Of a DNA stretch of 64,000 nt, positions 7,233 to 52,859 are shown piece by piece. The first letter of the stretch is position 1, and each line of letters starts with the position of its first letter. The notes under the pieces were generated by a model that was not told where the DNA came from, searched no databases, and saw nothing but the letters and a program-made list of their open reading frames with translations. Location of the stretch: contig ML992504.1 in NCBI GenBank assembly GCA_010093995.1, forward strand, positions 434,001-498,000, in the 5' to 3' direction. The stretch comes from Elsinoe ampelina (Eukaryota). Both the position numbers and the translations under genes were made by a program.

Positions 7233-8734
<1,502 letters not shown>

Positions 8735-9125: not shown

Positions 9126-9922
9126 TCAGTGGTTTCCTTGATCCTGCAATTGTGGGTCTTCGCTCTGGCTGCCCTCAACCTCGTCCTTCGCATCCTCACC
9201 TTCCTCGCTTCGGAAGCTAGTCTCCTCCAAAGCATTCTCAAGGAGCTTCACCATATTCCAATGTTTCCTCGCTCTTGCTGCTTCAAGTGCGTTGGTTATA
9301 CTGTCACGACGGGGTCTAAATTCCAGGAATATCTCAGCGAACGGCAAGAGACCACGTCGTGCCACAGCATGAAGACCATTGCGCCCATTCCGCCAAGGAG
9401 CGTCCACATCTACGCCCTGGTCTAGCAAGAGCCTGAAGAGTAAGCAGGTCGTTCGTACATCTTTACCACGCCAGCTGTACAGATCATCTTCCATCGCAAT
9501 TTGAAGGGGATGACCGAGGAACCCGGGATTGCCCGGGCTCACAAATTGGTCATGAATGTTAGCACCATGCGAGAGTAGCAACTGTGCGGTTTGCGGTTTC
9601 CCTAGTCTAATCGCCCTGAAGAGAGGCGAGTCTTGCTGACTCGCCACATGTGGATTTGGGTTTGCTCCATGATCCAGCAACAATCGTATGACGACCGATC
9701 CGTCCTGTAGTCTCGATACTGCACGTCCCAGGGCATCTGCGCGTCCATACTTCGAGCTTTCTGGGACATAAGCCTCTGCTCCGTGATCAAGCAACTTACG
9801 GACAACTGCTTCACATTGCGGATCGGCTACAACCTCGTCGAGATCTGGACCATTAAAGACTATACTTTCCAGAGCACAATCCAAAGCATTTAAAGAATCC
9901 TCATTCGTGAAATTGATACTTG
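9126..9922 (-). pseudogene. Detached 3' end (terminal ankyrin repeats and original stop codon) of the NLR gene that starts at 52859
   Basis: Open ankyrin-repeat frame (LLLDHGANPN, SPLFRAIRLG..TAQLLLSHGANI, NGLHAVARRG) begins abruptly at a hAT TIR and joins in frame with 42168-42436. Confidence 0.9.
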
Positions 9923-12900
9923 CAGACTGGTCCACAAACAAACAATCAAATATTGGCGGCTTTATTTGCTTGTTTATAAGGCTAGTAAGGAGTTGTTTGT
10001 TTAAATGACTATATAAAGCTATTTATCTAGATTGTTTATTCTGTTTGCTCGTCATTATCGTTGCTAAGCTACGTAACTTCCTTGCTACCTTTAATGCTAT
10101 TAAAGAGGCTAGAGTTAAGCGTAATAAGGCTAGTGTTAATCTAGCTCTTAAGGCTTATTAGCTACTCGATAGTGCTACTGTTTAATAACCTCTGTCGGCT
10201 TAATATAGCATCTCTAGCTTAGCTAAAGAGGCGCTCTAGTGCATCTAACATAGCTAGCACTATAAAGATATCTAATGCTATAGTAGAGAGCCTTAGCTAG
10301 TGCTATCGATTAGCCCACTAGTAAGGCACTAGTAAGTCCTTAATTGTTAGTGTTAATTAATAGCCTTCTATAAGATATTAGCTAAGTTCGTTAAGCTCGT
10401 TAATCTCTTTATTATTACTAAACTAGTTAGCTATAATACTAAAGAATTAAGCCTTATAAGGGGGAATATATAGCTATACTTAATATTAACTCTAGAGGCT
10501 ATAAAAGGAGGCCTTTAAGGCTATTATCTAAGGCTAAGACTAGCGTTATTTAAGATATAACTACTTTAGCTAAGAATAGAGTAGTTAGTAGGTAGTAGGT
10601 ATTCTACTACGGGTAGGGTAGAGTATTATTTCTTAGCATAGTAGGTATAGGTTAGGTAGAGTATTCTTAGTAGTAGGTATAGTAAGAGTTAGGTAGTAGG
10701 TATTTTATATACCTAAATACCCTACCTACTATAACCTACGCCTGTACGTAGGTAGGTATTACGTAAGTAATAGAAGCTTCTCTTAATTCTCTAATATAAG
10801 ACATTATATAGAATTTAAAATCAGAAAGGACAGTAATAATTATAGTCTCTAATTATAGCATCTTATATGCTTAGTTGTTGTATTTATAAATAGTTCTATT
10901 CTATACCCTTATAGATAATCTTATATACTTTACTAGAGGCTTGTTATTATTAATATTATTATTATTCTCCTCGTAATTACTTAGAACAAAGTTACTCTCT
11001 TAAGAAGGTAGCTTAAGTAGGTTATTTACCTCGTCTATAGTAGTATCTTTATAACTACTATTAATAGTATCTTAATAACTACTAGTAATAATATTACTAC
11101 TTAATAAAGAGAGACTTGTTATAAGCTTTATAATAACAAGCTACTAGATAGTTTATATAGTAAGCTAGTGTCTTCTATTACTAATAATATTCTTTACTAT
11201 ATTAAAGACATATTTAACACCTACGCTAGCTATTAGTATAGTAAGGATATTATAAGCGACTTTAGCAAGCTATAGAAACTTCTTCTTATTAGTCTTCTAC
11301 TAATTAAGCAACTTAAATTTAGTCCCTAGTTAAATTCGGACAGGAGGGATATTAAGGTAATTCTTACTTTCTTAATGTATAGTTTATCTCTTCTCCTCTT
11401 ATTCTAGAGATATAGACCCTATACTAGATTAGAAGCTAAAGCTAGTCTACGGGGAGGTAATCTATATAGGTACCCGAGGTTAACGGAACTAATTCTCTTT
11501 ATTATTAGACAAGATTATAGCGTTAAGGGTTTTAGGTTAACTTAATAGTAATTTACTATTATAATAACTAAGGTAGTTAAGGAACTACTTATAATACTTC
11601 CCCTTATTAGTTTTAGCCTAGGTCTCGTCCTATATTACTATTAGCTTTACTATAATAATATATCTATAAGCTATAAACCTTATAGAGAGTTAGCTTTTAT
11701 AAAGGGTCGAGAATAGTGCTATAATTAAAGAGGTAACCCCTCTTATTATTAGTGTAAGAATAGTACTTTAATAGTTTATCTTAACTATGTTACGCTACCC
11801 TTCTAACTACTATAGGCTAACGCTTCTTATTATTCTTCTCCTCGCCTATAATACTATTCTTAATTATATTAAGAAAGTCGAATAGTTAATTATATATTAT
11901 TTAGATATATAAGATCTATAGGCGGCTAATAGTACTTAGAGAGGTAGTTACTTCCTTAAAGTTCTTAAGCATTTTTATAACTAGCTTAAGGTAATTCTAT
12001 TCTATACTATTAAGATAAAGACGCTTAAGATCCTTATAGTTTAAATTACTAGTGTTATTACTAACTAAGTTAGATCTAGCACTAGTAGAGCCTTTTAGTA
12101 CAATTTCCTGCTTAAGCTATTTATTAATAAATAGCCTAAGCTCGAGACTATACTTATATATATTAAAGGTTAAGTTCTACTACGTCTTAATATCTTAAAT
12201 AATAACCTTACGCTCTCGAGGCGTTATAGTTTATTAGAGGTTAATAAACCTCTTAAACCGTTAAGGTAATTAGTTAATAGCAATATAAGTTATACAAAGC
12301 TAGTAATTTATTAAACTATAATTAGAAACTGTAATTAGAAAGCTATTTTCTAAAGTAAGTTTAGTACTAAGAGTTTAGTAGAGATATCTTTTAAGTGCTA
12401 TCTTTTAAGCCTAGTAGCCTACTCTTCTTCCTTAGTAGTCTAAAGGTTAAGGTACTTAATAATGTCTTATATAACTAGGTTAATAATATATATAAGACAT
12501 AGAATAGTATTCTCTTATAAGTCCTATATAATACCTATCTATCTTAGAAGCTTATATATAGTCTTATATAACGTACAATTGTTGCTTATATTGTCTATAG
12601 TAATTACTAGAAGCCGGTCCTAGAGATTGTACTACTAGAGTACCTATATAAGCTTAGTAGCTATATTCTACCCTATATATTAACTACGAAGTAGTACTAT
12701 ATCTAATAGTTATTCCCGGAGCTACTATTAGTCGTTAATGTAATAAGCTTTAATTGTAATAAAGCCTAAGTAGTTGTTAGTAGACTAGCTATTAAGTACA
12801 ATTAAAATCTTTATAGTCTTATTAAGATTCTATAATAAGCTTTTATAGAGAGTCTTAAATTTGTTAACAAAGAGTATAGCGAAATAACTACGGCTTAGTA

Positions 12901-15649: not shown

Positions 15650-18178
15650 TCTAGCTTACGCGCGTCGATTTGTCTAAGGCTTAATTAGTGTTATACTATG
15701 CTCTTAATTAGCTACTCTATCTAGCCGAGTAGGCTAATATAGATCTACTAGCGCTCCTATATAGTATAGGTGTTAACGCCGGCCCGATCTACTAGACTAG
15801 AAGCTATCCTCTATAGTTATTATAAATATAATACGAGCTAGTAACTTACCTTATAGACTATTAGGTAATACTCCGTTAGTGCCTTTATTGTTTATTATCT
15901 ATTCTTATACCTAGAGCTAGTCTTGCCTCTTATTGCTATATATCTCTTACTATTTAGTTATACACTAGATAAAGTCTTATTCGTCTATATTAGGATTATT
16001 AGAATTATAGTCGAATAGTTTTCTACACTTTAAAGAATAGTAGAACTTAACGTAGAGGTTACTTACCTAGGAAGAATCTAGTTCGAGTCTATTAGGATCT
16101 AGTTCGGCGTTAAACTAATTAGGGTATTTAGTTCTCAAGTTAGAGCCTATATCGGCTATACCTTAATAAGCCTCGCGGACAAACACCGCTATTACTTACT
16201 ATAGTAATAGCCTAGGTGGCATGTTAATAAGCACCTCTAGTTCTCTTACTATATGCTATATAGCTCCCCTCTTAGCACTAGGCTAGCTAAACTAAGAAGT
16301 GACATTTACTATATCGCTTACGCTAACTAGCGTACTTTAGATCTTAATTAGTTTAGCAGCCGATAGCCTAACTAACTTTAAGGGGTTATTAAATACTACT
16401 AATATATTTACTAGTTTAGTATTATAAGTAGTAACTTAGTCTTTCTATCTAGCCTTCTTATTTGTAAGTTTAAAGGCGTCCTTAATAAAGTATATATAAT
16501 TATGCTCTAAATAATTAGAATTAAGGCTAGTAACTACTCTAAAATTATAAATAGCCTTTAAAAAATGTATTATTAAGTACTATTTCGGAAAGTTAAAGTT
16601 ACTCTCTTCTTTCCTATTACTATAATAGGCCTAGAAGGTTTCTTTATACTTATTTATTCTAAAGAGCGCAAGGTTAATATACTAGAGTATATCGTTATTA
16701 TAGGTCTTATAGTTTACTAGTAATATAAAGTCGACTAGTACGCGTATAAACTTAATAGCTTAAGGCGCCTTAACCTCCTCGAGTAGTAGTATAAATACTA
16801 GAAGTATCTAGCGTACGATACTCTTCTACTCTTAACCTGTCTATTACTTAATAGCTAAGTAGTACAAGAAGTGTCGGATGCTAGGAAACACTAGTATACT
16901 ATTAAAACACTTATTAATAATATTAAGTATAATCTTCTTTACCGAGCGCTAGTAGCCTATTTACTATATAGTCTCTCTAGCCTTTATATACCGTAGTAAT
17001 CTCTATATAGGTATTAAATCCTAGAGCAATTTTTAAGTCTAGTGTAAGATATATATTAAAACGCCTTTAAGAAGTTAGTGTAGAATATCTAGTACTATCG
17101 CGTAGTAAATATTAGTATACGGAAGATCCTATATAAAGCAACTAACTATATAAATCTAAGAGCTTATATCTATCTTCTTACTCCGCTACTAACTCTCGTA
17201 TACTTCTCTCTATAAGCGCTATTATTACTACGTAGAGTAGTAAGTTCGGAATAGTATAGTAACTACTAGGTCCTCTCTTTCGTCCTTACCGATTAGGCAA
17301 CTTATATAATAATATAGTAACTTTATACTAGTTATAGTAACCTATTCGGCGTAATTCGTAGATATAGTAGCAAGTATAGAGAAGTACCTCTATCTCTTTC
17401 TATTCGTATAGAAGATTATTTCGCCTTCTCTTAAGTAGTAATTAATAATAGTGTTAAAGATTTTCTTTATATAAGCGTAGTAGGTCTTCTCCTTAACGAT
17501 ATTACTACTATCTTTAATAATAGAAAGTAAGCTAATTAGTAACTACCCCGGCTAGTAGTTGCTATTATATACTTTTACCTTTAGGTTGCCTAATAATAGA
17601 TAGATAGCATATGCTATAAGATCTCCTTAATAGTTTGTTACCTAGGTCTAATTACTTACGACGATTAATGGAATAATAGTAGCCTCTAGTATCCTAAGTC
17701 GCTTTTATGTATTCTACTACTAGTTGTCGCTTGCTATTTCGGTGTATACTTGTTATAGTAGCTTACTCTCGACAGCTTCTATAAAGACTCTATATAGGCT
17801 ATAGTCTATATCTACTACGAAACTACGATAGCTAAGTAAGAAGCGTATTGCTATAAGAATATTTAGATACTAGAACGTGTGTCTTTTAGGCCTATAATTA
17901 GTGTTTAGTATAAAGCTTAAGGTCTACTAGCTATTAATACCTCCGCTTGTATCTAAATTCTCTATCTTCTTTATTAGTTTATTCGTAGTTTGCTAACTAA
18001 GGCTCTTTACTAGAGGTTATATATATAGGTCTTTAAGCAATTACGTAATTATAGCTCTACTAAGTTTCTCCTTTATAAGCTACTAAGTAAGACCTACGTC
18101 TATGCCGCTAATAAAGACTTCCTTTAGTTAAGTCTCGCCTAACTAATTATAATTTATTTTATCGTCGGTATTAGTATA
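15650..18178 (-). pseudogene. Plavaka transposase relic
   Basis: Literal 'VYTEIASDN***NT*KRL...ATIIPLIVVSN*T*VTN' matches the Plavaka consensus RVYSEM.TGDWWW.TQ...GATI.PII..SDKT.LT (~17640-17750). Literal 'DILH*LLKG' = DILHQL.KG (~17063-17090). Ends approximate. Confidence 0.85.
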
Positions 18179-21100
18179 TATATTATAGACTTAGAGAGAT
18201 CTAGACAAGATTAGTTAACGCAAACTAAGAATAAACTATATCTATAACTAACTCTTCGCTACTAGCTAGTATACTAGTAGCTATCTTAAACGTAGTATAA
18301 TTAGATATAGCTCTACTAGATAAGGACAACCTTCTAGTACTCTGCTCTATAGACGTGCTACTAGTTGTACTTACTATAATTACTTACTCTTTCTCGTATA
18401 TGCCTCCTGTTATAACCTCGTTTATGCTCTTCTCTTCCTTATATACGTCGCTATCGAGCCTACTATTACTATTACTGTCTGTTCTACGTACTAGAGGTTA
18501 AGGGTCGAGGTTAGTAAAGAGACTAAGAGGATTATCCGCTATACTATACTATATAGTAGGCAAAGGGGGAAGGACACTCTCTACTAGCTATAGACTTTTG
18601 TTTCTACTCTAGTGTTTAGTTTAATTCTTAGTTACTATTATTTGTAGCAGAGTAAAGTAGACTAGTAAGTTATTTAGCATTAGTAGACTATATCGTATAT
18701 TACTAGTAATACTACCTCGTTAGCCTTTATTAGACAGTAAGCGCTCTCCCTTATTAAATAAGTAAGAATTGTTACTAGTGTTGTCTCTACGTAGATATCT
18801 ATCGCTATATTACTCTAGTAAGACTTACGCTATGTTACTTATTAGTAGCTCTCTCCTCTAGTAATACGGCAGATGTTAGATAAGGCCTCTACTAGATTAT
18901 ATAATCTTCCCGTAGGCTAAGTATTTACTAATTTGCCTTAGTATATTTATGTTTATCGCTTAAGATCTAAATTTGTAGTTAGAGTTAGCTAGCTAAATTT
19001 TAGCGATAGTAGGAAGTAGAAAACATTTAGATGCTATATTATATTAGGTAACCTAAAAGATAGTTTAGTATATACGGGGAACTAAATTAGTCCGCTAAAC
19101 TAAAGAATTGCATTTTTAGGTAATATAGTTAGACTATTATCTAGCAATCTTAATTATTATCTATAATAATTATATTCTTCTTTACCGTAGCTTGTTAAAG
19201 TTTCTAGATCTCTACTCTCTACTTCTCTATTTCCTCGTAGATAACCTTCTATATTATTAATAGCCTACTCTATCTACTATTAAGCTATTCTAGAGGCCTA
19301 TAGAATAGAGCTGTCGGCTTTATTATAAACGCCTCTATATAGTTAGCTTTCTAAGACTTAATGTTCCTACGGACCTAAGCTAGATACTAAAGGACGAATT
19401 ATAACACTAACGCTATATTAAGTAAGATTATAGTATCGAAGCGGTTTAGATTAAGACTAGTCTTAATAGCTCTACTCTAGGCAATTAAGATTCTTAAGCC
19501 TTCCGGCCTATTAGGTTTAATAAACGTATTATTAGACATAGCTACGTTAATAATATCTATATAGACAGGTATAGATATTATTCTATAGTAGACAACAACT
19601 ATATTAGTATCCTTATTAATCCTAATTGCTTTACTGTCTAGGTGCTTCTCGAGCTATTTTAGATACTATACCCTTATTAGTAATAACCTAAATAGACTAA
19701 ATAGACCGAACTAACTATTGTAGTAACTACTAGCACTAATAGTGTAAATGTATAGACGATTACTTGCCTCTTTAGCTCCTTCGAATAGGAGACGTTCTAC
19801 TTAATAATCTTAGAAATAATACTACAAAGGACCTTTATCTAAGGACTAGCGTAGATCTTGTCTATATACTACTATAGCGCTATCTCTAAGAGGTCACGTA
19901 TAATTTTATAGATAAACTTAATAGTAAAGTCGCTAAACTCTTCTATAACTACGGGATTGTCCTAGAATATATCTATAAGAGCAAGAAACATAGAGAAAAG
20001 TAGTAGCGGCGTAACTAGGCTTAGTATTTACTCCTTAGTCTTCTTATTAAGGATTATCTCTAATGTTACTTTAGGCTTATCGGATTTGTCCTTTTACCTA
20101 TTAATTGCCTCTTATACACTCTTATCTATATTCCGTTTAATCTTCTTCTATGTATTTATAAGACTATAAAGATACTTATTCTTAATAGTAATCTCTAGGT
20201 CGAAGGTAGAATATAGTAGAACTCTAATAGCTAGTAGACTAGGAGTAGTATTAAAAGGTTTCTAGATATAGTTTATATTTATCTTAATAAGAATATTCGT
20301 AAGAATAGTGCTCTATTTACTAACTGTTACTATAATCTCTTCTATAAACTATATACTTCTCTTTTTATTAAACTTACTAGAGTTATTATTTGCCTTATAC
20401 TATTTGTTAATTACGAAGGCATAGTCTAATACTATTTAGAAGTTAAGCTTGTTAGTAATAGCTTATTAAGTCTTGTCTAGTGTTGTCTTTAGTGTTACTT
20501 AACGTTTGTTGTCCTTAGCCTTAGTTAGCTTCTACTTAGATTTATAGATATAGTTCTTGTTAAATTCTTCTATTCTACTTCTATTTACATTAAGCTTTTC
20601 TAATCTAAAGTTCTTATATATAGCTACTATTAAGAACGCTACTACGTTTAAGTACTTAATAAATAGCGTCCCGCTTATACCTAGTATAAAAGGCCTCCCT
20701 AGTAGTATTCCTAGACAAAACTAAGTCTATGTCTTCTAGCTAGTAACCTAATAGAACTTATTAAAGATAATAGCGGCCTAGTTTATAGGCGTAGACCCTA
20801 GCTTTCTCTCTTGTCCCTTAGGAATAAAGTTCTAATCCTTAGCGTTTATATTGTTCTTACTAAGGAAGTAGTAGATTATAGTGTTGCGAGTAGTAAAGAA
20901 GAACTAATTATTTATCTATAAGGTCCGGGGGTGTTACTTATATATATTAACTAGTTATAAGACTATAATAGTGTTAATAGGCTTACTAGACTTATCTATT
21001 AGCTAAGACTCCTATTAGCGGCAGTCTATAGGTAGATCCTCTTTGTAAATTAAAGTATTTATATTATATACGTTGCTATACTTATCTTCTCGTATAGCTT

Positions 21101-24774: not shown

Positions 24775-24900
24775 AACAGGGTTTATAACGCATTTATAAT
24801 GCTATAAAGATTATAAGTCTCTAAATATACTATATCTAACTTTAGAGAAGAATATAATTAGATAGTATTACATAATTAAGTTCTAAGGAGTACTTAATCT

Positions 24901-25098
24901 AGTTAGGTCGAAATTTTAGGTTATTCTTAAACTTCGAGAGAGAGGACTAAGACATTGTTAGTTTAACGTAATAAACTACTAGCTGTCCCCTACCGGCCGT
25001 AGTTAGGTCGAAATTTTAGATTATCTTTAAACTTCGAGAGAGAGAACTAAGAAATTGTTAGTTCGATATAATAAACTACTAGCCGTCCCCTGCCGGCT
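24901..25098 (+). repeat. 100-bp tandem duplication in the spacer between units 1 and 2
   Basis: AGTTAGGTCGAAATTTTAG... at 24901 and 25001; the copies differ mostly by transitions. Confidence 0.9.
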
Positions 25099-37900: not shown

Positions 37901-40900
37901 AAGAGAAGCTTATAGAATAATAAGGTAACCTCTTTCTAGTAGCGACGAATCTCTCGGAGAGTAATAGCTAGCTTCTATTAGTTCTATACTATAATTAAAG
38001 ACTATAATAATTACTACTAGGCTTATATCTATACTTCTTTCTAGACTTAGCTCTAGATTATAGTGCCTTCTTTATAGTAGGTTACTTCTCTTTATAACCT
38101 CTTTCTCTAGGACTAGTAGTAGCTTAAGGACAATTCTTAGTATATACTATAGTAAAATAAGAGGTTATTTATATATAGCTAAGAAGTTAAAGTTCGTATA
38201 TAAAATTTTAGTATATATAAAATAGTAAAAAGAAGAGACTAGAGTAAGAAATATAAAATCTATTATTAGATATGCTATTTACTATTAATAATAAGAATAA
38301 TAGAAGAATAATAAATAACTTATATAATAATAGCTTCCTTGTTCCTTACCTTAGCTTCTCCTTTTATTATTTTATACATTTATAAATTGTAATTTTTAAC
38401 TCTAACTTTACCTTTATACCTTTACCTCTTTTACTTACCTTATATATAATTTATATACTATAAATACTCTTTTTATTATATTTAATTAAATGTCTATACC
38501 TATAGAAGACATTAAGATAGAGTAGAAAGAGTAGGTAGTAATTAAGTAGAAAGAAGACTCTAGGGAGAATATTCTAAGAGAATTGTTAGGGGTATTAATT
38601 ATAGTTTCTTATTATATATAGTTGCTAATAATACTAGGGGTTTAATTCTAAGTAGTAGGAAATTAAATACTAGATCTCTTAGCGTAGCGCTAGTTAAACT
38701 AGAAAGAGCTATAAGACTAGATTTATCGCTAGACACTCTAGACCTCTAAGTTAAAGCGCTTATACTATTAAGTAGAGAGATTATACTTCTTAGCGTATAT
38801 ATAAGGAGTAAGCTCTAGCTACTACTTATATAGTAGATTATAAAGCAGTTAGTACTTTACGTAATAAGATTAAGACAGAGGATAGGTAGGACTAGCTCTC
38901 TACTAATAAGTAGAATGTTAAAATTAATAATGCTATTAATAATATAGAAGAGAAACGCTTTAATAAGTAAAGGAGTAGTAAGTCTATTATTATAGTATAC
39001 TATTATAGTAGTACTAATTATTATAGGCAAGTAGCTCGAATCTATGTTTATATAGACCTATAAGAAATAGACTAGTATTAGAAAGACTCTATAAAAGTAA
39101 GAGTATAATAAGATTATTAAGCATATCTAAGATAATATAGTAGCAAATTAGTAAGGCAAACAATAGCTAATATAAGCCTATACGTATATCTATAGTACTA
39201 GCGGTATTATCGAGAAGCTATAGCGCTAGATTTACTAGGATAGCTATATAAGCCTTATTACTAATAACACTAACAATAAATAGACATATAAGATTTTTTT
39301 TAAGTAGCTTAAAGAGCTTCCTCCTATAGAATTAGTAGTCTTATAGGATCCTAACTAGTAGTAAGTTTATTATAGTCTTTAATTATAGTGTATTCTAACA
39401 ATTATATAGGTAAGTTATTCCTCTATCTCCTAATTATAAATATATCTCCGAGCTTAAACTCTATAGTACTAGGCTATACTATAAAGGAGATAATAATAAT
39501 AAGTATAAGAAGGAAGTTAAGGAGGATAAGGATAAGATCGAAAGGATGTTAGATAAAGAAGCTAGTAGTAAGGAGGATAATTATTTAGGTGTTAAAGTTA
39601 AAGATAAGTTAGATAGTAAGGATAAGAATAATAAGATTATAGAGCACTCTAAGCTTAAGACTAACACTAATAACAATAATAAGAATAAGAATATAGAGGA
39701 TAAGGATACTACTAAGGTTAAGGATAAGGAGATATCTAATACCTAGGTATAATAGGGATTAAAAGTGCAAAATCTATAAGTAGTAGTATTAGAGAATATA
39801 GTTTATAATTAGAATCTATAATTAGTAATCCTCTCTTATTAACTTTTAAGATTACTACTTAAACTTTTTAGATTACTAATACCCTACTAGGTATAAAATT
39901 AATTACTCTACTCTACTCTACCTACCTCCCGGTATACTCTACTCTTACCTACCTTAGCGTAGATATACTAAGAGGTAGATAGAGTATAGGTAAGGTAGGT
40001 TATAGGTATCTAAATTGTATACCCTACCTTACCTACTAACTACCCTAGCTAAGGATAAAGAACTATAGCTACTATATAGACTAGTAACTTATTAAGCTTA
40101 GTATAATAGTTATTTAGCTTCTACTAGCCGAGATTATATACTATACTAAAGTAAGCCTTAGAGGTAAGGAGGCTAGTGTTAACGCTTAGTTATAAGGCTA
40201 AAGAGACTAGATATTTAATACATTTAGACTTAAAGTGATAGAGGAGACGTTTATAAGCTAGAAGTACTTACTAAATGTAGCTAAATTTGCTACTAACATT
40301 GCCTTAGAGGAGGATAGTTACACGTTAAAGAGGCTTAAGGAGTTTATAATAGTACTTAAGTACTATCTAATCCTTAGAGGTAAGCATGTTATAAATAATA
40401 GATAGCTAATAAGGGGGAGGTCTATTAGCTTACTCTACTCTTCGGTAACAACTAGTATATTTATTAGCTTTAAGCTAGTAGAATTCATTAATTGCACGCC
40501 TTAAATAGAGAGCTCTTTTAATAGCGTTATTAAAGCTATTCTAGCAAGTGTTAATGTCCTTTATAAGAGTATAAATCTTCTTCTTTTTAGCTAGCTAGAG
40601 AGGTATAATAAGCTTTAATTAAAGCTTATTAAAGCGGTCGATTCGCTAAGGTAAAGCGTTAATATAATAAATAACATTATATAATTTACTATAAGGGCCC
40701 TTTTTCCTCTAAATCTAAAGGAGTATCTCTTTAAGTGTAGAATCTTTAAGCTTATACTTAAAGGCTTAAGAGTTATTACTAAAGAGTATAGCTTAGCTAC
40801 AGAGGTTAAATATATAGCTATAGCACTAGAGTTAATAGTCTAGTATCTTAAAGCTAAATTCGCAGCTAAGATAGTCTAAATAAGTATTATTATTAGAGGC

Positions 40901-42167
40901 GTTATTAGTTATAAAGTAGCCTATTTACTCTTAGAGATTATAGTAAGAAATTACTAAGCCTATTATCTCTGCCAAATTTAATCTAGTATAATAGCTAGCT
41001 TACTAAGGGAGAGCTAGTAAAGTAGTTATTAGCTTACTATTATAATTAATAAAGTAAGTAATAATACTAAGAAGCGCTAGCTTATTCCTTAAGGTCTAGA
41101 GGTTAAAGGAGATATTAATCTTTATAGCTACTAAGATAAGAAGCTTAGTTAGCACTCTAAGCTACTAGTTATATATCCTTCTAATCGTCTAGCTAATAGT
41201 CTAATATAAGGGGAGAAGTACTCTTAAGCGTAGCTAGAGGTACTAAAGTAGCTAATAGAAGACTAGTAACTCTACCTTTCTAAAAGGCATATTATTCGCT
41301 AAGATCTCTAAATATAGAAGTACTTAAAATTAACTTCTATTAAAGCTAGCTACTTACTTACTCTTAATACTTAAGAGCAAATTAGTACTATTACTTATAT
41401 ATTTATAAAGAGTCTTACGCTTCCTTAAAGGCTATAGTATTAGTAGGCTATTAGGTCTAATTAAGTGCTAGTTCTTAAGATAGTAGAGTATAGAGGAGGT
41501 TATAGAGGAGGTCTTAAAAAGGTAATTCTTAGTAGCCTTCCTTATATAGTAGTCTTTACATAACTAATATAATTTTAAGTCCTTCTAGACTCTCTAACTA
41601 AGCCTCTAGATAGGCGCTCTTACTTTCCTATTATTATTAGGTACTAAATAGCCTCTAGGGAGGTATTACTATATAAGTCCCTTATATCTTTAGAGGTTAG
41701 ATTCTAGTAAATTATCTACCTCTTATATAAGGCTATAGAAGTTATTTTTGCGCTAGAATTTGCTCGGAATATATAATTCTAAGGTTGCTAAATCTAATAG
41801 AATATTACTAAAGTCTTTAGAGGCTATAGTAGTAGAGCTATAATTTAGTAAAGTAGTGTTAGTATCTTATTTACAAGGCGGAGAAGGATTTAAGTAAATA
41901 TCTTAGCCCGATAGTAACTCTTCTAATTAGTGTAGATCTATCTATACTACTTCTTAGCCTAACTTACTATCTAAGTCGTATCTATCTTACTATAACTATA
42001 TAAGCACCTATACTACTAATTATCTATTATACTAAGCTAATAAATAAACTAATTAATTAATAAGGAGCTTAATTATTTATTTATAACTATAGCGCTATTT
42101 GTTTGTTTATAGTTTATAAGTAATTTAAGCAATTATAATTAAAATAATTTGTTTATAGACTAGTCTA

Positions 42168-42441
42168 GATACTTACTCTAGCTTCGAGTAAGATTTCTAG
42201 AACTTGCAAATTATATAACCTAGTAGCCTAGTATAGTGTAGTACTAACACGTAATAGCATTTCTAGAACGATTGTCTAGGCTATAGTACGTAGCTCATTT
42301 TAGTCCTTATACTAAGCGAGGCTTATATTAAGACTCGAGACATTACATTTAATAGCATTTTTATAGTAAATGCTAAGTTCTATAATGTAGTTAATGTTCT
42401 TCTCTTCTATCTCTCTAAATTTCTCTACACTTTGCTTAATT
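42168..42441 (-). pseudogene. RIP-mutated internal fragment of the NLR ankyrin exon, trapped between hAT-A and the Gypsy element
   Basis: 90 codons, in frame with both neighbours; ends STTLY*ATRLYNLQVLEILLEARVSI, an ankyrin repeat (de-RIP GTALHQAARLHNLQVLEILLEAGASI) that continues as NFTNED at 9914. Confidence 0.9.
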
Positions 42442-42633
42442 TAATTACAACTAGTAAGACAAGAGGTTAATTACGTCTATTCGTTAAGATATTAAGACTT
42501 AGAAGAAGAAGAAGAAAAGCTAGTATATAAAGCACGCGTAATATCGAGGGTAGAGTAGCCGGAAGCCCGGGCTACGATGCTAAGATTATGTAATTAATCT
42601 AAACTATATCTAGTTCGTATCTATCTTATATTA
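42442..42633 (-). repeat. 3' LTR (heavily RIP-mutated)
   Basis: Colinear with 48459-48650; ~30 differences, all C->T or G->A in this copy. Confidence 0.95.
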
Positions 42634-45600
42634 CTACTCTCTCTCTTAAGCGCGTTTACTCTTAAACGCTATTATACATTATTTATTAATCTATTTCGGC
42701 CTTAGCTTATCCGTATAAGAGTCTAGATAGTTACGTAGTACGTTAGCTACTCCTTTAAGATTGTTAATTAGCTACTAGGTAAGATTCTCTAGATAGCTCT
42801 TCTAGCTTATATAAGTAACTAACTTCCCTTGTAGTAAGTATACGTTAATTACGTTATTTACTTTATACTTCTCTTTACTATCGACCTCTATCGGAGGTAG
42901 TTCTTTAAAGGCTTAGCCCGGTAAGGGGTTATTTAGATGTTTAGTAAGTAGGTTAGCGTAAAACACTAGGTAAATTCTTTATAGAGAGGCTAGTAAATCG
43001 AGCTTATATACTAGTAGTAATCGTTTCTTAAGGATCTTATAGGGACCTACATGCTTTAGTAGTAGCTTTAGATTGCTCTATAGCTAGAGGTTCTTCGTTA
43101 ATAACTATACTAAATCGCTAGCTTCGAACTCTATTAGCTAGCGGTGTTTATTAGCTTATTCTACTATTCGTGACTAAGCAATAGTAAGGTTAGCTTTAGT
43201 AATAGCTAGTGCTTCTTCTAGTTACTTAGTAAGTGCGCGAATGTCGACCTTATTTAGCTTAGCTCTTATTAACGGTGCGTTAAAAGGGAGCTAGAAGCTT
43301 AGCCTTAGCTTATATCCTCTAGTGACTTTAAATAGCAATAGTTTAGTACTCTCTAATAGGTTAACGTTAGCGGAGAATTCTGCAACTAGTAGAACAAGTG
43401 TCTAATTGCTAAAGCGTATAGCATATAAACGAATAACTTACTCGAACTTGCGATTTATAACCTCTAATTAGCTATCTATTTATAGATGCCCTATAGTAGA
43501 CAGTTTAGTAGTAATCTTTAGGATTTAGTAGAGCCTTTTCTATACGTCGCTAACAAACTAAGGGCTGCGATCTAAGGTAATACTATCTAGTAGACTATAT
43601 AGTTTCCACACGTAGAAGAATAATAGCTTAGTAGTCTTAAACGCTAAAGTGCCGCCTTCTCCGGCGAAGTATAGGATTAAGTGCTATTCCTTAGATAGAT
43701 AGTCGACAATATAGAGCACTACGTTACAACTGTCTACTAAGAGTAGACTAGTAACGAAGTCTATAGTAATATATTACTATAGTCTTACCGGAATAGGTAA
43801 TAGTAATAGAAGGCTAGCTAGTAAGCCGTAGTAAGCCTTTAAGCGCTTATAGTTATAACAGTTAGCGACGAATCTCTTAACGTTAGAATCGCACCTAGGG
43901 ATATAGAAAGTAGACTTAATTATAGTAGCTATCTTAGTAGCTTCTCCGTGTGTGTAATTCTTCGATGTATAGACTTCTTAGATAACTTTTGTAGCTATAG
44001 AGAAAGGCACGATTAATTAGCTAGTAGCGTATAGTATTCTCTTCTTAATTATAACATTAGTCGACGGCAGCTATTTCCTCTTTAGGAAGGCCTCTATTAT
44101 ATAGTAGATGCCGCGAACTGTTTCGAAGTTAGAGTCTCGTAAGTTAGCTTTAGCTACTTCGTCGAATAATAGTAAAGTTTACTCTCCTAAGGTCGAAATA
44201 GGTGCTATATAGGTGCCTAGCTCGCGAGCCGAAATAGGTAGCGAAATAGGTAGTGAAACAGGTAACGAACTAGACGGCGAACTAGTTCGCGAACTAGATA
44301 CTAAAGTAGATCTTAGTTCGGCTTAGATTAGTAATCTAGTTCGGATGCGACCTAGATTTAGTTCGTTAATAATGCGCTAATCTAGCACCTTATATAGTAG
44401 CAGTGTCTAGCGTAGATTAGAGTCTTCTTTCGAACGTAGTATATCTCCGTTCCTCCTTATAAGTACGTTAGCCTTGCCGTTAGCAGCGCTAGGCCTATAT
44501 ATAATCTTAAAGTTAAACTATATAAGGTAGAGAGCCTAGCGCACTTAGTAGCGTAATAGCTTCTAAGTCTTTATAAAGTACATTAAGGATTAGTAGTCGG
44601 TAAGAACGTAGATAGCTTTATCGAATTAAGTGCTTATAAGCTTAGGGGCCTACTCCTTAAAGGCTTAGACGATAGCTAATAGTTCCTTATCGTAGATAGC
44701 GTAGTTATATTTAGCTTCGCTTATAGATTTACTAAAGAAGGTAATAGGCTAGAGAACGTTAGACTTATTATATTATAACAGAATTCTAGTAGTAGTTATG
44801 TTAGAGGCGTTAGTCTTAATAACTACTTACTTCGAGCGATTAAAGTGCGCTAAGATAGAGACACTTATAATAGTATACTTTATATAGTTAAACGTAGTAG
44901 TACACTTATTATTCTATAGCGTAGCGTTCTTCTTAAGTAGGTCGTTTAACAGCTTAGCGATAGTACTAAATCCCTTAATAAAGCGGCGATAGTAGCTATA
45001 GAAACTAATAAAGCTTCTTACCTAAGTAGTGTTACTAGGGGCTAGTTATTTCTAGGCTTGTATAGCTTCGACCTTCTTTAGATCTATCTTAACTCTATCT
45101 CGACTAATAATAATACTAAGATACTTTACTTCTGTTAGGTAGAACTTACTCTTCTTAATATTAGCGTTTAGGCCTAATTCGTAGAGCTATTAGAGCACTA
45201 GCTTAATATGCTTAGTGTGCTCTTAGTAAGAGCCGTCGGTGTAAATAAGAATATTATCGAGGTAGATTAATACAAAGCGCTCTAGCATATCGACAAAGTT
45301 ATAATTTATAAACCTCTACTATACTATAGAGGCGTTAGTAAGGCCGAATAGCATTACTAGCTACTTAAAGTTGCCTATACATATAAAGAACATAGTAAAG
45401 TCTTCGCTATCGATAGAGTTATAGAGGCAGTAGAAGGCTTAGTAGATGTTAATCTTACTAAACTATTTAGCTTTACTTACGCGCGTAAGTGTCTCTTCGA
45501 TAAGGAGTAGCGGGTAGATATCTCGTTTAGTTACCTCGTTAAGGCTATAGTAGTCGACATAGAGACGGAGTTCTCTACCTAGCTTATAAATAAAGAGAAT

Positions 45601-48458
45601 AGGCGAGGAATAGCTAGCTAAGCTTAGCGTAACGAAACTCTTATTAAGGTACTTATAGATAAATAGCTCTACTATGTCGAGCTCCTCTAGTAATAGGCGG
45701 TAAAGGGGTTTAGTACGTAGTAGTTTAGTACTATCTTTAAGTGTAATATAGTTGTCAAAATCTAGCCGATGCTAAGGAAGCATATTAGATTATTCTTTAG
45801 AGAAGATATTAGTAAACTCTTGTAGTTCCTTAGGTAAGACTACTATAGAGTCTAGCTCTAGTTTAGAGGCTAGCCAGTAGTAATCCTTAATGTCCTTTAC
45901 TAAGATAGTAAAAACCTTATTCTCTTAGTATTTAGCTACCGATATAAAGGCAACAGCGCTAATAAAAGCGATAGTTAGTTCTTCTTATTTAGCGTTACTT
46001 ACGTAGGTAGGTACGTAGGAGAACTTATATATTAACTAAGTACTATAGGAGATTAGCTTAAACTCTCCCTAATTTAGCTTAAAGTTCGACCTAAGAGCTA
46101 GTAGCTAATATAGTCTAGTTCGTCCTAACTTAGTAGCTAAGCTAGAACTTAGTTTACGAGTTAGACTAGAACTAAACTAGTCCTAAACTAGAGCGGTAGC
46201 TTTGCCGAGCTAGATTCCTAGATCTAAGCCCGGCTTAGATCTAGATTCTAGCCTTTTAATTAGCTACGGTAGCTCCTACTTAATAACTATTAGTAAAAAC
46301 TCTTCTTTGTATATAACTTAGCTATACTTATAGTCGATAGTAGCCCTATTAGCCTTAAGCTATCTAAGGCTAAGAATAATATCGAATCGGCTAATATCTA
46401 TAATGTAGAAGGTAGTAAGGTTATTTAGCTTACCGGAAACGGTAGTAGTAAGAGAGACGCTATAAGTAACTTATTCTATTAGGACACTGTTGTAAGCCTA
46501 AAGCTAAATAGAGCTAGCTAGTGCCACGGGGCAGCCGAAGCTCTTTAGCTTATTAAGAATGTTATAATTAACTATAGCGCTAATAAGTACACTAGTATTA
46601 ATAAAGGCTTAAAGTGTAATAGTACATAAGCGGTTATAGAGGTCGTAAATAGTAATAGGAGTTATAATAGCGAGGATGTAGTAGCTAATAACGCTATTTA
46701 ATAACCGTATACCTCCGGATTTATCTCGAATTACTCTTATTCTACTAGAGGATAGAACTTGTCCTCTAGCTACTTATTTCTCTAGCCGAATAGGTCGGTA
46801 GACTCGTAATCTATTTCGGGGTCGAACTAAGGCTAAACTAGATCTAGTTTATAAGTCGAACTAGTATCGACTTAGTTACTTAATTCAGCTAAGCGTTCCT
46901 AGAGCTATTATATCTCTTCTATAGCGCTAATACGTATAGGACGTATAGTAGCGTAAGTAGCCTTCTCTAAGGCGCTAGCTATACACTTAGTAGAGATATA
47001 GCTAGGCTTACTACATACGTAATAGGTAAGTGCCTAAGTTAGATAGAAGAGCTATAGGGCTCCTCTAGTAATAGAGTAGAAGGTAGCTAGAGTAGCAGGT
47101 ATAGAGGTAGAATAAGGCACACAAATTAGTGCTATAGTAGCGCAGCTTATAACTAGCCTAGCGCGTAGAGCTTAAGTACGCTTAGTAATAAGGTTACTCT
47201 ACTAAATGTTATAGTCGGTAGTATAAGCCTTTATAATAAAGGTAGAGAGGTTATTAGTATCGAAGTTAATAAGAGTAACATGTAGCTTATTAAATATCTT
47301 CTAGCATAGCTAGTAGAGCTATTTATCCTTAGCAATCTTAGCGTAGAGAGCGTACTTATTAAATTTGCTAATAAAGGAGTTAAAAGAGATATTACGCTAG
47401 AAGAGGCTAGTAAACTAAGCGTATATAGTAGCCTTACAGTTTAGATCCTCGAAGCGCTAGGCTAAGAGGCTAAGAGCAGCTTTAGCGTTAAGAGTATCGT
47501 TACCGGCGGAGTCTATAATAAGAGTATATACTTCGCTAGAGAGACGTAAATAGAAATAGGCGAACTAAGTAGCCTCGGTAGAGAAACAGTTAGTATTAGC
47601 GTATATCTTATTCTTTATCTAGTGCTTAAAAACCTTAAACTGTTCTAGGGTGCTACTAGAGAAGATAGCGGAGTCTAGTATCTTCTTTAATAATATAACG
47701 CTATATACGGAAGAGGCTAGTATAGTATGTTCTATCTTAGCTCTTAGCTAGGCTAGTTTAGTTTTAAGTTTACTAATGTTAGTAAGGTAGCGTATAGCCT
47801 AGGTAGTAAGATTATTAGTAGTACTATTAGCTATATCTAGTTTAATAAGGACGTTATCTAACTAGTTACATAGGTTAAGAGTATTAGTATATACTAAGTT
47901 ATATATAGTAATCTATTTATTATAGGTAAACTTAATAAAGGTAAAGGCCTTACGTAGAGTAGTTATACTATCTATCTCTTATAGCCTCTTCTTAAGGTTA
48001 GTGTCGCTAAGGCAAATAAGGTTATAATAGGCTAATTAGACTAGTTTATTATTATTATTAGTAGGGGGTAAAGGAATCTTACTTACGTAGTAATTGTCTT
48101 TACTATAGTTAGAACAAGCTATACTTAGCGTAGTTAGTCGTAAATAAACAGTGTAAAAAGTCAACGCGTAATAAAGGGAATATTAAAAATTTTAGCTAGT
48201 AGTCTACTTCCTTTAAGAGTTATCTATAACTTAACTTATTACTCTCTTCTTATATCTTCGAGGTTCGCGGTATTAACCTATATAGCGGCAGTAAGGATCT
48301 ATTATAGTGTGCGCAGGAACTGCGGTTGTAATAGCTTCTTCTTTAATTCTTTAATTCTTCGTAAGTGGTAGTTATTAGTAGTTATATAAGTAGTAGAATA
48401 ACTAGATAATTTAATAGCTCTATTGCTTGGTCGCGGTCGTTTCGAAGTCTCGATATAG

Positions 48459-48650
48459 TAATTACGACCGGCAAGACAAGAGGTTAATTGCGTCTATTCG
48501 TCAAGATATCGAGACTTAGAAGAAGAAGAAGAAAAGCTAGTGTACAAAGCACGCGTGATATCGAGGGCGGAGCGGCCGGAAGCCCGGGCCGCGATGCCGA
48601 GATCACGTGATCAATCTGAACTGTATCCAGTTCGTATCCATCTCGCATCA
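48459..48650 (-). repeat. 5' LTR (almost free of RIP)
   Basis: Begins TGATGCGAGA on the minus strand; retains CpA, TpG and CpG dinucleotides. Confidence 0.95.
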
Positions 48651-51600
48651 TGATTCGCTCAACGAATTGGTCCAATTTCCATATCCTGGCGCAAGGATCA
48701 GCATCGTCGCGCTGATAGCTTTCGGTGAAGTTGGTCACAACTCCGAGCTTGATTGTAGGCTGCGAACCTGGGAAGAACACGTGATGCTGAACTTTGTCGC
48801 TCCAGACCCAGGATGCATCAACTCGCGCTCCATGCAACAATAGAACTTTAGCAGCGTCTCCATTACCGCGACCGCATGCCACTTGCAGTGCAGTTAGCCC
48901 ATCTAGGGAACCCGTGAAAGAGTCTAGCTGTGCCCCAGCGTTGATCAATAGCCGAATCAATGCTGGATCTCCGTTGTAAGAAGCTGCAGATAGTGGTGTA
49001 GCTGGATCAGTCGATACTCTCCTAGAATTGACGAGCTTCTTCGGATCGTCACTGCTAGCAGTGATTCTGGCAACCCAGTCCTTTCGACCGCGTTCGACTG
49101 CGCTCACCATTGCGCTGCCACGTAAATACGGCGAACGTGCGGCCGGCAAGAGTAGTGTCACAACAGCGTCGTGACCATTTCTTATGGCTTCAGACAGAGC
49201 TGAACGATGATCCGAGTTGACCTCCCGGTCCGTGGCACCGTAGGACTGTAGTAGAGCTGCCAAATGTACATGGCCACTTCTAGCAGCTACCAACAAAGGG
49301 AAATCACCATCCTCCAGGCCATTGATAGTAAAAACACCAACATCTTTCCTGTAGGCAGCGTCCACTTCCGCGCCGTGATCAAGGAGAAATTGGACGACCT
49401 TGCAATCGCCAGCGACTGCGGCAAAGACAAGCGGAACACAAGGTCGAAACCCCGGAGGATTGTGATCCGGCCGGGCACCTTGCTTGAACAGACGCTGTAT
49501 GAACTCTATCCTTCCTCTAAGGGCGAAGCATTCCATTGCATAGGGAAGACCATAATCAAGCCTGTCGTTACCCTCCACTTCAGCGTTTATGATAGCATTT
49601 ATGATATCATTAGAACCACGGAACGCAGCAAGGCTTAAGCAACCTTCCAACTTGGTGCCCCACCGAAGCAGAAGACATGCTAGTTCAGAAGAGCCTGTCA
49701 TGATGGCCACGAACATGGCGGGTCGAGGGCTGCTGAAGACGGCGTCGTATAACTGCACATTGGCATTCGCACCGTTCTCGAGAAGTAATTTGATGATGAG
49801 TAATCTCTCCGAGTCGTGATAATCGGGTCTCAGGCGGAATTGGGTCATAGCATACTGTAAAAGAGTCCCACGCTCTCCGGATAACACGTCGATCGCTGCA
49901 CCATGCGAGACGAGATGCTCGACCACAGTCAAGTGTGCACCCCAACAAGCCAGAGCGAGAGGGCGACCCAGGTTACCGCAGCCTTCGCAAGCTTCAATAT
50001 CTGCTCCGGCGCGAAGGAGGACTTTCACGACTTCCAGGTGACCTTGAAGACTTGCTATCTGCAGAAGCGTCCCGAAAAACCCGTGCCTAGTGTCTCGATT
50101 CTCTTCTAGTCTCACGAGGTCAGATATGAATGCATCAGCACCAGTCGCACACAGTAAATGGACGAGCGATAGTGGCGTATCAGGCCATTCGGACCAGTCT
50201 CGATCTGTTGTCAGACCAGCCAGAGAGAACCCGAAAATCCGGCCGGCATTCCTGTAAGGTACATTGGCGAACGTTAAGCGATATGAATTAGGACAGTGAT
50301 CTCCCAAATAGATCAATGATTTTGACAACTTGTCGTCCACGAAGCGCGCTCTCTTGACGTGATGGATCCAGTAACGCGCGGCGTACCATGCGAAGCGGAA
50401 ACCTGGCACCAATGAACCAGTCTCGCTACATGCCGCAGGATCTAGGAACTTTAGCTAAGTGACACAAAGAGCAGCAACATGGTAGTGACCGCTGTCGGGC
50501 TCAAAGCAGACCGACCTCTGTGGCGTTGGAGAAGCCAACAGGTATTCTCGTACCGACAGGTGGGCCAATTGAACTTTATGATGGTGCATCACGAATCCAG
50601 ACCAGTCCCCCACAACAGAAATGAGCGTAGGACACAACTCCAGCGCATCCTCGGGACGAAAAAGTAGCCCTGTCCAGTCAAACTTCCATTCTCCAGAAAG
50701 ATCTACGGCAAGGGCATCCGTAACTTCAGCGAGTGTAAGAGGCTCTCTTGCCCACAGCAGAAGCTGTAACAAGGAGTGGACTTGATTCCAGTCTTCCGAC
50801 TTTACGCTCCGCAACGACCTATCATACGTTTCCTGCAAGGTTGATGGCAGGGAGTCGATGGCGTATCTCAAAGTTTTCAAATTCTTGCATAGTCGTAATG
50901 CTTCGATCTGACAAGCCACCCAGCGGAACCTTCTATGTATTAGCGGGGAAGATCATGAAGCAATACGGCGGCTTACATGCCGCCCGCCTTGGCGAGAAGC
51001 TTTTGTTCGATTTCCGCTTGCACCGCTGGTCGATCCTGCAATCTCCTGAGCAGTTCTTGGTCTGAACGGACTACATGCTGCACGTAAGCATGGATATCAC
51101 CATTGACAGCATGTTTGTCTAGATCTTTGATGCAGTCCTCTTGCGAGCTAATCGTCTTGACTTCGAATTCGATGAGTGGTCGAGGTTGAGCAGTCAGCAG
51201 TATTTTGACTGGACAATTGATTTTATATAAATGCCCGATAAAATTCAGGACCAAGGCCTGCTCTTGACACTCGTCCACGGCGTCCAGGATCAGGGTGATG
51301 GACCCCTGAAGGCTGACACAATCCAGAACGAGAGTCTTAAGTTTGTCGTCCGAAGGCTGAGCTTCCCAAGCCGACTTGTGCTCCGACTGGAGATGAGTTC
51401 TTACTGCGTCGCTGTTGTGGCTCATTTGCAATAGCAAGCATCTCAGTAAGCCAGATAGATCTTGCTTGGCTTTGTTGGTGAAGGAGAAGTAGTAATAGCA
51501 GAGCCTCGAAGACATTGCAGGGTCAGTCTGCTGCTGCTCCACAATCGTCGATGACAGTACTGTTTTTCCGCACCCAGAGGTACCTCGCAACCATAAGACA

Positions 51601-52859
51601 TCGTCTCGGCTAGAAGACCAGCGAACGTAGCGAGGATCTTGTAGCAGCCAGTTTCCTGTCCCGATGTGACGTTGTTTCCTCGCTTGATTGAAATTTATGG
51701 AGGGGTCGGGTGCATCCAGCCAGGCCTCCATTGCAACTTTCTGCCGAGCTGAAGTGATATCATCGATCTTGTCGGCAGTGGTTTCTGCCAGGACTTTCGT
51801 CTGACTGACATCTTTCGCCACTGTCCTTGTCAGCCTTGCACCGAGTTTTCAAAGAGAAGTTCTACCAGACTGCAGCACCCCAGCGATCGAGGGCAAAGCC
51901 TCGATCGCTGGCGCCGGTATCTCGAGCAGCAGCTCACGGGCATATCCAGCTGCTGCCATGGCTGCGTAGCCTTGCCATAATTTGTTCTTATGGGTGTCGC
52001 AATAATCGCAGATGCCGCGGATGACGATACAGGGAAATATGTCCATAAGGCCCGCAGCTTCCATCTCCACACAGAGCACACCTTCGCCGGATAATCGATC
52101 TCGCCTCGTGGCGCTCCTGATCAGGGTATTTCCAGAGGCAATCAGGCCATAGTGGATTGCAGGATCCTGCCGAGCATGCCGTTCACTACGAGCTGTGCGC
52201 TCGACGAGGCACTCCTCTGCACCGTGCTTGCAGACGGCGCAATCGTTCTTTTCTGAATGCAAATAGTCTGGTTTGGCAAGTCTGTCGGTGTCTAAAAGCG
52301 GTCGGCTGAACTCCTTTTGAAAGTCGGGCATTGCAGCCTCGAGCCTCTTCAAGAGATCGTCATGCAACTCATGACCTTTCCGGCGGTGTCGTCCATGGAG
52401 AGAATTCACCTTGGTGAGGAGGGCTAGTGGCGGCTGATTGAGATGACCAGTCCTTCGAAATCCAGTTGCCTGCTCGTACCGACCCATGTCGTACTGGATC
52501 ACTCCGCCGTGCCCCTTCCTGGGCAGGGAGACCACAACATCACCAAGTCTGATGTCAGCCTCCGCACTTGGAATACCGCCGCCAATTCCGACCATGAAAC
52601 CGAAGCGGACATTTGGAAAGGTTCTCAGCAGGTTTGACGCAACAGCGGTGGCGGAAGTGGTGCCGTATTTACCGCCGGGCAATACTGCAACGACGACATT
52701 GTGAGGGCCAACGCGTCCGAGTACGTACGAATTGATGTCTTCCGCAGCTTGCACGTCCGGCGGTCCGAATTCTTCATCGAGTGTTAGACAGGCGGCATCA
52801 AATTCGTTATCCAGTGCGCAGATCCAGGCGATGGTGAATTGTGACGGGTCTGGAGCCAT
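48651..52859 (-). pseudogene. Fungal NLR-like gene, PNP_UDP_1-NACHT-WHD-ankyrin (5' part). Introns at 51821-51865 and 50930-50976; in-frame TAG at 50455-50457; interrupted by the LTR element at 48650
   Basis: PNP domain (IAWICAL, VGIGGG, VEMEAAG, IRGICDYCDTHKNKLWQGYAA); Walker A GTSGCGKT; Walker B LILDAVDEC; GMFRWVACQ rebuilt by splicing; LP.TL.ETY, VQLAHLSVREYL, YAARYW; many ankyrin repeats. Confidence 0.92.

Follow-up and report, generated by a model that had tools for sequence, protein, structure and literature searches.

The stretch of DNA analyzed here, called the window in the following, comprises 64,000 nucleotides (nt) of contig ML992504.1 of the fungus Elsinoe ampelina (GenBank assembly GCA_010093995.1, positions 434,001 to 498,000 of the forward strand). 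It contains an AT-rich block of about 30% GC (approximately 10.0–48.5 kb) with gene-rich DNA of about 52% GC on either side. A minus-strand gene, starting with an ATG at 52859–52857, encodes a NOD-like receptor (NLR) of the architecture PNP_UDP–NACHT–winged helix (WHD)–ankyrin, and the last exon of this gene is broken by two mobile elements. In the original prediction, made from the sequence by itself, this arrangement had been described as one NLR gene with two independent insertions, 274 bp apart, in its ankyrin exon, and target site duplications (TSDs), element termini, reading frame and domains all bear this description out. The AT-rich block, at least 38.7 kb in length, falls wholly between the two insertion sites and therefore lies, as had also been proposed, inside this one exon.

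To define the domains, the stop-to-stop minus-strand open reading frames (ORFs) 51849–52865, 50973–51848, 50455–50952, 48484–50454, and 9126–10022 were scanned with Pfam. Exon 1 (51866–52859) encodes the phosphorylase-like N-terminal PNP_UDP domain (PNP_UDP_1, E 1.9e-8, 34.5 bits against a cut-off of 25.1 bits), and exon 2 (50975–51820) the NACHT/NPHP3_N NTPase (NPHP3_N, E 1.1e-37; NACHT, E 8.9e-9), with both the Walker A (GTSGCGKT at amino acid (aa) 411) and the Walker B motif (LILDAVDE at aa 508) intact. The two exons are separated by intron 1 (51821–51865, 45 nt, GTAGAA...ACAG), and intron 2 (50928–50974, 47 nt, GTAAGC...GAAG) precedes the third exon. The first part of exon 3 (50458–50927) contains the winged-helix region, for which the match to GPIID_WHD is weak (E 2.5e-4, 21.9 bits, under the 27-bit cut-off), and ends with a premature TAG at codon 771 (50455–50457), so that the present ORF comprises 2310 nt, or 770 codons, without internal stop. 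Behind the TAG, exon 3 continues with an open ankyrin region of 601 codons (48651–50454; Ank_2, E 2.6e-40). The 3′ end of the old exon is found on the far side of the block (9126–9914; Ank_2, E 2.8e-13) and consists of 262 codons encoding ankyrin repeats and an acidic tail, followed by a TGA at 9126–9128. Of the features that characterize a fungal NLR of this type, a NACHT domain with Walker A and B motifs and an N-terminal PNP_UDP domain are present at the locus. A C-terminal repeat sensor in the same polypeptide is absent; the ankyrin repeats lie behind the TAG and are split by two transposons. The locus is thus a former member of the PNP_UDP/NACHT/ANK NLRs that is now truncated.

The public protein model of the gene, P0121, is a 594-aa “hypothetical protein ... 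[Elsinoe ampelina]”, whose source also places the locus in this species. In line with the expectation that annotation would fragment the locus, it covers residues 177–770 only, being exactly identical to this part of the 770-codon ORF. As the model begins at an internal Met (residue 177), it is without the first half of the PNP_UDP domain.

Contigs of public runs (X1, X3, X4, and X7) were compared with the window. Both introns are skipped in X3 record 12, the second one in X4 record 17 and the first one in X7 record 25 as well as in P0121. Because the introns are skipped in these contigs, the runs X3, X4, and X7 contain RNA, which shows both transcription and splicing of the gene. Exon 1 is covered by RNA contigs of all three runs (X3 record 14, X4 record 21, X7 record 26), and the ankyrin part of exon 3 (48651–50454) by X3 records 9 and 10 and X4 records 15–17. 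Upstream of 52859 the RNA contigs continue, with X3 record 14 extending past 52900. At the other side, X3 record 9 spans 48495–49528 without any difference, i.e., the transcript extends across the ankyrin region and includes 156 nt of the long terminal repeat (LTR) of the first of the two elements, a Ty3/Gypsy retrotransposon, and the outer LTR of this element may now supply the 3′ end of the transcript. Two positions of X4, 49862 and 49869, deviate from the window; they follow the TAG and would each change a residue in the old frame (L969P and G967R, respectively), but two sites are too few for any inference. Furthermore, some X3 contigs of greater depth (e.g., record 13 with 8497 nt and a depth of 164) align to the PNP_UDP exon over short parts only (51952–52508) and have loose ends; these are probably transcripts of paralogous PNP_UDP genes.

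The TAG, on which the original prediction was silent, interrupts a conserved C-[LIV]-[TA]-Y-L motif (here LCVT-stop-LKFLD) 1.8 kb upstream of the Gypsy insertion site, within DNA that is without repeat-induced point mutation (RIP). In an alignment of 111 full-length homologs, 108 of which cover the column of codon 771, this position is occupied by Tyr in 97 cases, by Cys in five and by other residues in six. Since 97 of the 108 homologs carry Tyr, the lesion is a Tyr-to-stop transversion and not a RIP-type change. X3 record 11 (50414–50545) and X4 record 17 (50123–50927) span the TAG with neither a gap nor an alternative letter. An intron around the TAG was also considered and is ruled out, as the RNA contigs of X3 and X4 are uninterrupted there and the sole GT..AG choice would be 15 nt long. 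As judged from the sequence, the locus is predicted to express at most a 770-aa PNP_UDP–NACHT–WHD protein without ankyrin sensor.

Insertion sites of the two elements

The element next to the 5′ part of the gene is a Ty3/Gypsy LTR retrotransposon of 6209 bp in minus orientation (42442–48650), as defined by its LTRs, its TSD and its pol order. One minus-strand frame, read with X at stops, contains RVT_1 (aa 964–1117), RT_RNaseH (1183–1311), Integrase_H2C2 (1484–1540), and SH3_Tf2-1 (1782–1840), and the assignment to Ty3/Gypsy follows from this order of reverse transcriptase, RNase H and integrase, with the integrase placed after the reverse transcriptase. The LTRs (42442–42633 and 48459–48650) are 192-nt direct repeats with 161 identical positions. 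The 31 mismatches consist exclusively of G>A and C>T changes, in which the inner copy (42442–42633) carries the A or T. The outer (5′) LTR is nearly RIP-free, while the inner one bears the 31 changes. Dating of the element by LTR divergence was dropped, as every difference is of the RIP type. The TSD reads TAATT (42437–42441) and TGATT (48651–48655) on the plus strand, with four of five positions matching and the mismatch being a transition. A tblastn search with the Gypsy pol found no second related copy in the window. When X1 was compared at 80% likeness, 9333 contigs were obtained, mostly on the Gypsy element, and the summary line of this comparison gives 819 transitions vs. 47 transversions. 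As the differences are mostly transitions, the genome behind X1 contains many RIP-diverged Gypsy copies.

The second insertion is delimited by hAT-type termini at 9923 and 42167 (minus orientation), and the space between them is filled with RIP-degraded repeats. Its 8-bp TSD reads GATACTTG (9915–9922) and GATACTTA (42168–42175), with a single G/A difference, and its terminal inverted repeats (TIRs) of 20 nt, CAGACTGGTCCACAAACAAA (9923–9942, plus strand) and TAGACTAGTCTATAAACAAA (42148–42167, minus strand), are identical at 16 positions and differ by transitions at the other four. A RIP-degenerate pattern of the TIR occurs at just these two sites in the window, with none of 100 shuffles giving a match, and in purine/pyrimidine code only 2 of 2,000,000 random 20-nt pairs from the block match equally well. 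About 1.2 kb inside the 9923 end and on the same strand, a remnant of the C-terminal dimerization domain of a hAT transposase is found (approximately 11125–11359, minus strand; Dimer_Tnp_hAT, E 1.2e-6, 28.7 bits against a cut-off of 21.4 bits, read with X at stops). The 8-bp target duplication, the short TIRs and a C-terminal dimerization domain near one end are as in the hAT superfamily, with the transposase being known from this domain remnant only. Unlike in a typical hAT element, the ends are about 32 kb apart with mostly other repeats between them, and the element is thus identified by its termini and one domain remnant.

Excision of each element together with one TSD copy joins 48651 to 42436 and 42168 to 9914 and keeps the frame over both joints. 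The joined exons (52859–51866, 51820–50975, 50927–48651, 42436–42168, and 9914–9126) add up to 5175 nt, i.e., 1724 codons plus TGA, by which the junctions and the length given in the original prediction are reproduced. The piece between the elements (42168–42436, minus strand) is a RIP-mutated remnant of the ankyrin exon of 269 nt, which is in frame with both flanks, including the RIP-free 9126–9914 part. Its GC content is 0.32, its TpA/ApT ratio 1.8 and its (CpA+TpG)/(ApC+GpT) ratio 0.48. In the frame of the gene it contains four stops in 90 codons, all of them TAA or TAG, compared with seven to 13 in the five other frames. Together with the TAG at 50455–50457, these four TAR codons are the five internal stops of the joined frame. 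The claim that the state before the insertions is fully recoverable therefore does not hold: because of the TAG at codon 771, confirmed in RNA contigs, and the four stops in the fragment, excision yields no open frame of 1724 codons, and since the fragment is RIP-mutated its former sequence is ambiguous. The stops in the fragment had, like the TAG, not been reported in the original prediction.

The joint between 42168 and 9914 was additionally scored with an ankyrin position matrix built from 796 windows of the 111 homologs, and all T>C and A>G reversals were permitted within its RIP-mutated portion. The 33 codons over this joint (...STTLY, a stop, ATRLYNLQVLEILLEARVSI and, behind the joint, NFTNE) reach a score of 25.4 after RIP reversal. 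None of 20000 control windows of RIP-mutated transposon DNA scored as high (control maximum 23.3), and the clear ankyrin repeats of this protein score 14.6–51.4 with the same matrix. The low number of stops in the frame of the gene and the score of the joint both speak for an origin of the piece from coding sequence.

Two of the element boundaries are bridged by contigs of X1. Record 8 (16280 nt) spans 48616–52900, thereby reaching 35 nt into the LTR and bridging 48650/48651, and record 2 (643 nt) spans 41820–42462 without differences and bridges the hAT end at 42167/42168. As X1 is possibly the source sample of the assembly, these contigs serve as a check of the assembly and not of the biology.

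RIP pattern and content of the block

RIP is usually assumed when the TpA/ApT ratio is above 0.89 and the (CpA+TpG)/(ApC+GpT) ratio below 1.03. In the block and the 269-nt fragment these ratios are 1.7–2.25 and 0.22–0.48, respectively, as compared to 0.36–0.77 and 1.3–1.7 in the gene flanks. The TpA excess, the depletion of CpA and TpG, and the differences between the two Gypsy LTRs, which are solely C>T or G>A, are all in accordance with RIP. The number of CpA plus TpG per 100 nt is 11–17 in the exon on both outer sides of the block as well as in the outer half of the 5′ LTR. On the Gypsy side it falls to six at 48451–48550 and to one to three deeper in the element; at the 9923 end it starts at 13 (first 100 nt), remains at five to seven up to 10322 and amounts to zero to three beyond. 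For the 269-nt fragment, values of five to seven were obtained. RIP thus tapers off inside the elements before their outer boundaries are reached, leaving the gene flanks unaffected, and the single-copy 269-nt piece between the elements is reached by it.

Within the hAT-bounded stretch, the remnant of a Plavaka-type (Kyakuja/Dileera/Zisupton-like) transposase at approximately 17056–17980 (minus strand; Plavaka, E 1.1e-23) represents a separate nested element. A direct repeat pair of 777 bp (23998–24774 and 31159–31935), 89% identical and 7.16 kb apart, resembles the LTRs of a nested retroelement. No Pfam family was found in the three plus frames of its interior (24775–31158; the minus frames were left unscanned), and no obvious TSD flanks the pair. 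ORFs of at least 150 aa are absent from the block, small effector-like genes not having been looked for. At 22109–22983 the block contains a run of 875 N, also absent from the original prediction, which represents either an assembly gap or a withheld stretch and is probably an assembly gap within a repeat. Related repeats lie on either side of it, at 18178–19870 and 25463–27146, with 87% identity between 18178–18683 and 25463–25968 and 69% between 19538–19870 and 26815–27146. Because the N run sits inside the block and is the only connection between its halves, the block length of 38.7 kb is a minimum.

The genes in the flanks of the block encode a cutinase (3572–4285, minus strand), an M24 peptidase (7306–8571, plus strand), a myo-inositol oxygenase (59608–60615, plus strand), and a Gag1-like clamp protein (61079–62350, plus strand). 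No Pfam family matches (at E ≤1e-4) the open frame of 559 codons (53319–54998, minus strand) that immediately precedes the NLR gene on its 5′ side.

Relatives and comparable loci

A search with the NACHT ORF against 1.84 billion cluster representatives gave 13830 matches at E ≤0.001, with 99% identity to P0121 and at most 41% to all others. P0121 itself, when searched against proteins of 1041–2970 aa, yielded 1451 matches at E ≤1e-40 among 8000 scored candidates. The 120 of these matches that were listed are 33–41% identical, resemble the locus in their four-part architecture and all contain ankyrin families. This is in agreement with the statement in the original prediction that PNP_UDP–NACHT–ANK is a common fungal NLR architecture, and the available part of a published article also counts PNP_UDP among the commonest N-terminal domains of fungal NLRs and describes PNP_UDP/NACHT/ANK proteins (PMC4986451). 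Against proteins of 326–1040 aa, only two matches were found at E ≤1e-120, namely P0121 itself and one protein at 40% identity. For the ankyrin piece, the best identity among longer proteins was 30%, and animal ankyrins swamp the results, which makes this search useless for finding orthologs.

The domain order of the locus, PNP_UDP, NACHT/NPHP3_N with Walker A and B motifs, winged helix and ankyrin repeats, is that of Pa_3_8560 of Podospora anserina as far as described in the available text (PMC4986451). Among the matches listed, the likeness to other PNP_UDP/NACHT/ANK NLRs amounts to 33–41% identity with full-length relatives across the first 594 residues compared. Unlike in these NLRs, the ankyrin part at the present locus is untranslated owing to the TAG and split by two transposons, and no close ortholog is known. 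A role in non-self recognition or cell death comes from the family literature only, again as far as the source was available (PMC4986451).

A similar process is the “genome fissuring” of Pyrenophora teres, in which, according to the part of the article available, a first transposon enters a genic region, repeats expand there, and the resulting fragments are annotated as separate or truncated genes, with RIP leakage hastening the decay of isolated gene fragments (PMC5915480). Insertion, repeat expansion and mis-annotated fragments all match the present locus. In contrast to the P. teres case as presented there, the present one comes from another fungus, TSDs and termini still mark both original sites with single-base precision, and the whole block can be placed in one exon without a second genome. 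Likewise, AT-rich isochores of Leptosphaeria maculans are described as mosaics of RIP-degraded transposons from which RIP leaks into embedded single-copy DNA (PMC3105345, available in part). The block of about 30% GC beside DNA of about 52% GC, the several degraded element families and the RIP-mutated 269 bp of single-copy DNA are comparable to these isochores, whereas, unlike what is reported in that text, no leakage into the outer gene flanks is observed and RIP fades inside the outer element ends. A survey of Sordariales ties NLR numbers to RIP and repeat content and, in its accessible part, reports no case of this kind (PMC12258605). In the literature searched (supplements excluded) no description of this locus was found.

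Alternative explanations and meaning

Taken together, these observations make it very probable that an NLR gene of about 1724 codons once existed at the locus, that it was split by two transposons, degraded by RIP and separately hit by a nonsense mutation, and that it was recently disabled or truncated. The long last exon would have been struck twice within 274 bp, by a hAT-type DNA transposon, which left the 8-bp duplication, and by the Ty3/Gypsy element, which left the 5-bp duplication. We infer that further repeats accumulated in the hAT-bounded stretch by later nesting into this first insertion, and that RIP would then have converted everything between the outermost element ends, i.e., at least 38.7 kb including the trapped 269 bp of exon, to AT-rich DNA. 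Separately, the Tyr codon 771 between the winged-helix and ankyrin parts would have become TAG through a transversion not attributable to RIP. The promoter and both introns are still functional, and transcription proceeds past the ankyrin repeats as far as the Gypsy LTR. Translation can yield only the 770-aa protein without repeat sensor, which has presumably lost its function. As all pieces are otherwise still open, these lesions appear to be recent. The suggestion in the original prediction that the two insertions “seeded” the AT-rich block is plausible.

Several points weigh against this explanation. In the databases searched, no relative above 41% identity and no uninterrupted allele was found. 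Since neither such an allele nor a close ortholog was found, the continuity of the exon before the insertions is deduced solely from the logic of transposon insertion. No contig of the public runs joined 48651 to 42436, X4 and X7 having no cover there, and X1 record 2 overlaps the inner LTR by 26 nt instead of the required 31, so that 42436/42437 is not independently bridged. The 269-nt fragment by itself contains no Pfam family, and a home-made ankyrin hidden Markov model (HMM) gives weak scores (5.3 bits for the fragment alone, −0.1 bits for the joined protein). Pfam scans of parts of the block revealed neither a hAT catalytic nor a BED domain, and the three minus frames of the 3.7 kb beside the 42167 end (38500–42167) contain no Pfam family. 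Finally, the two hAT ends are linked solely through a scaffold gap, the N run.

Among the alternatives, the one that survives best is that the truncated gene is alive, its 770-aa PNP_UDP–NACHT–WHD product being a functional, selected NLR derivative without sensor, e.g., a constitutive or regulatory one. Correctly spliced transcripts in three runs from three samples (X3, X4, and X7), the absence of any further lesion from the 770 codons, the intact Walker motifs, and the position of both X4 differences after the TAG would all be in accordance with such a function. However, young pseudogenes are commonly transcribed, and the 601 codons after the TAG as well as the 262 codons at 9126–9914 are also open, suggesting that the events are merely recent. 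A functional derivative is therefore considered unlikely, and it is to the same degree doubtful that the TAG was favored because it removed a damaged ankyrin domain.

It is far less probable that the arrangement is an assembly artifact in which the N run misjoins two AT-rich regions, so that the gene would not have its 5′ and 3′ portions on one 43.7-kb stretch. The N run does lie between the hAT ends, and the related repeats around it (18178–19870 and 25463–27146) are a typical setting for a misjoin. Nevertheless, the inverted pair formed by the hAT ends is unique and flanked by matching copies of an 8-bp duplication, and joining of the flanks produces an in-frame ankyrin repeat, which is not expected from a misjoin. 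Moreover, a misjoin would alter the size of the block alone and not the splitting of the exon by the hAT element.

About as improbable is the view that two unrelated genes are present, an NLR ending naturally near 48.6 kb and an ankyrin-only gene ending at 9126, with the block being intergenic. In its favor, ankyrin repeats are widespread and can be aligned to nearly anything, the stretch before the Gypsy site is non-canonical (the joint, at aa 1372, lies beyond the last HMM match, which extends to aa 1318), and no ortholog has the pieces within one protein. On the other hand, the ankyrin frame is free of stops up to the Gypsy site, with the ORF continuing into the LTR, the 269-nt piece preserves the frame between its flanks and has the fewest stops in that frame, the hAT joint restores an ankyrin repeat, and the DNA upstream of 9914 is a hAT terminus with no promoter or start.

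The split and truncated NLR gene is a well-resolved new example of the known processes of transposon fissuring and RIP and leaves the current understanding of them unchanged. It provides a clear single-genome example of an AT-rich isochore starting inside a gene, the founding sites of which are readable to the base, and a natural gauge of the reach of RIP, with the 269 bp between repeats being mutated and the outer gene flanks untouched. With regard to annotation, the public 594-aa model covers only part of a 770-codon ORF, which in turn is the stump of a 1724-codon NLR. If the truncated product were functional after all, the locus would show transposon-driven domain loss remodeling a fungal NLR, caught soon after the event. 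For the NLR repertoire, it illustrates a route of loss in which transposon insertion and nonsense mutation strike the sensor region while transcription is kept.

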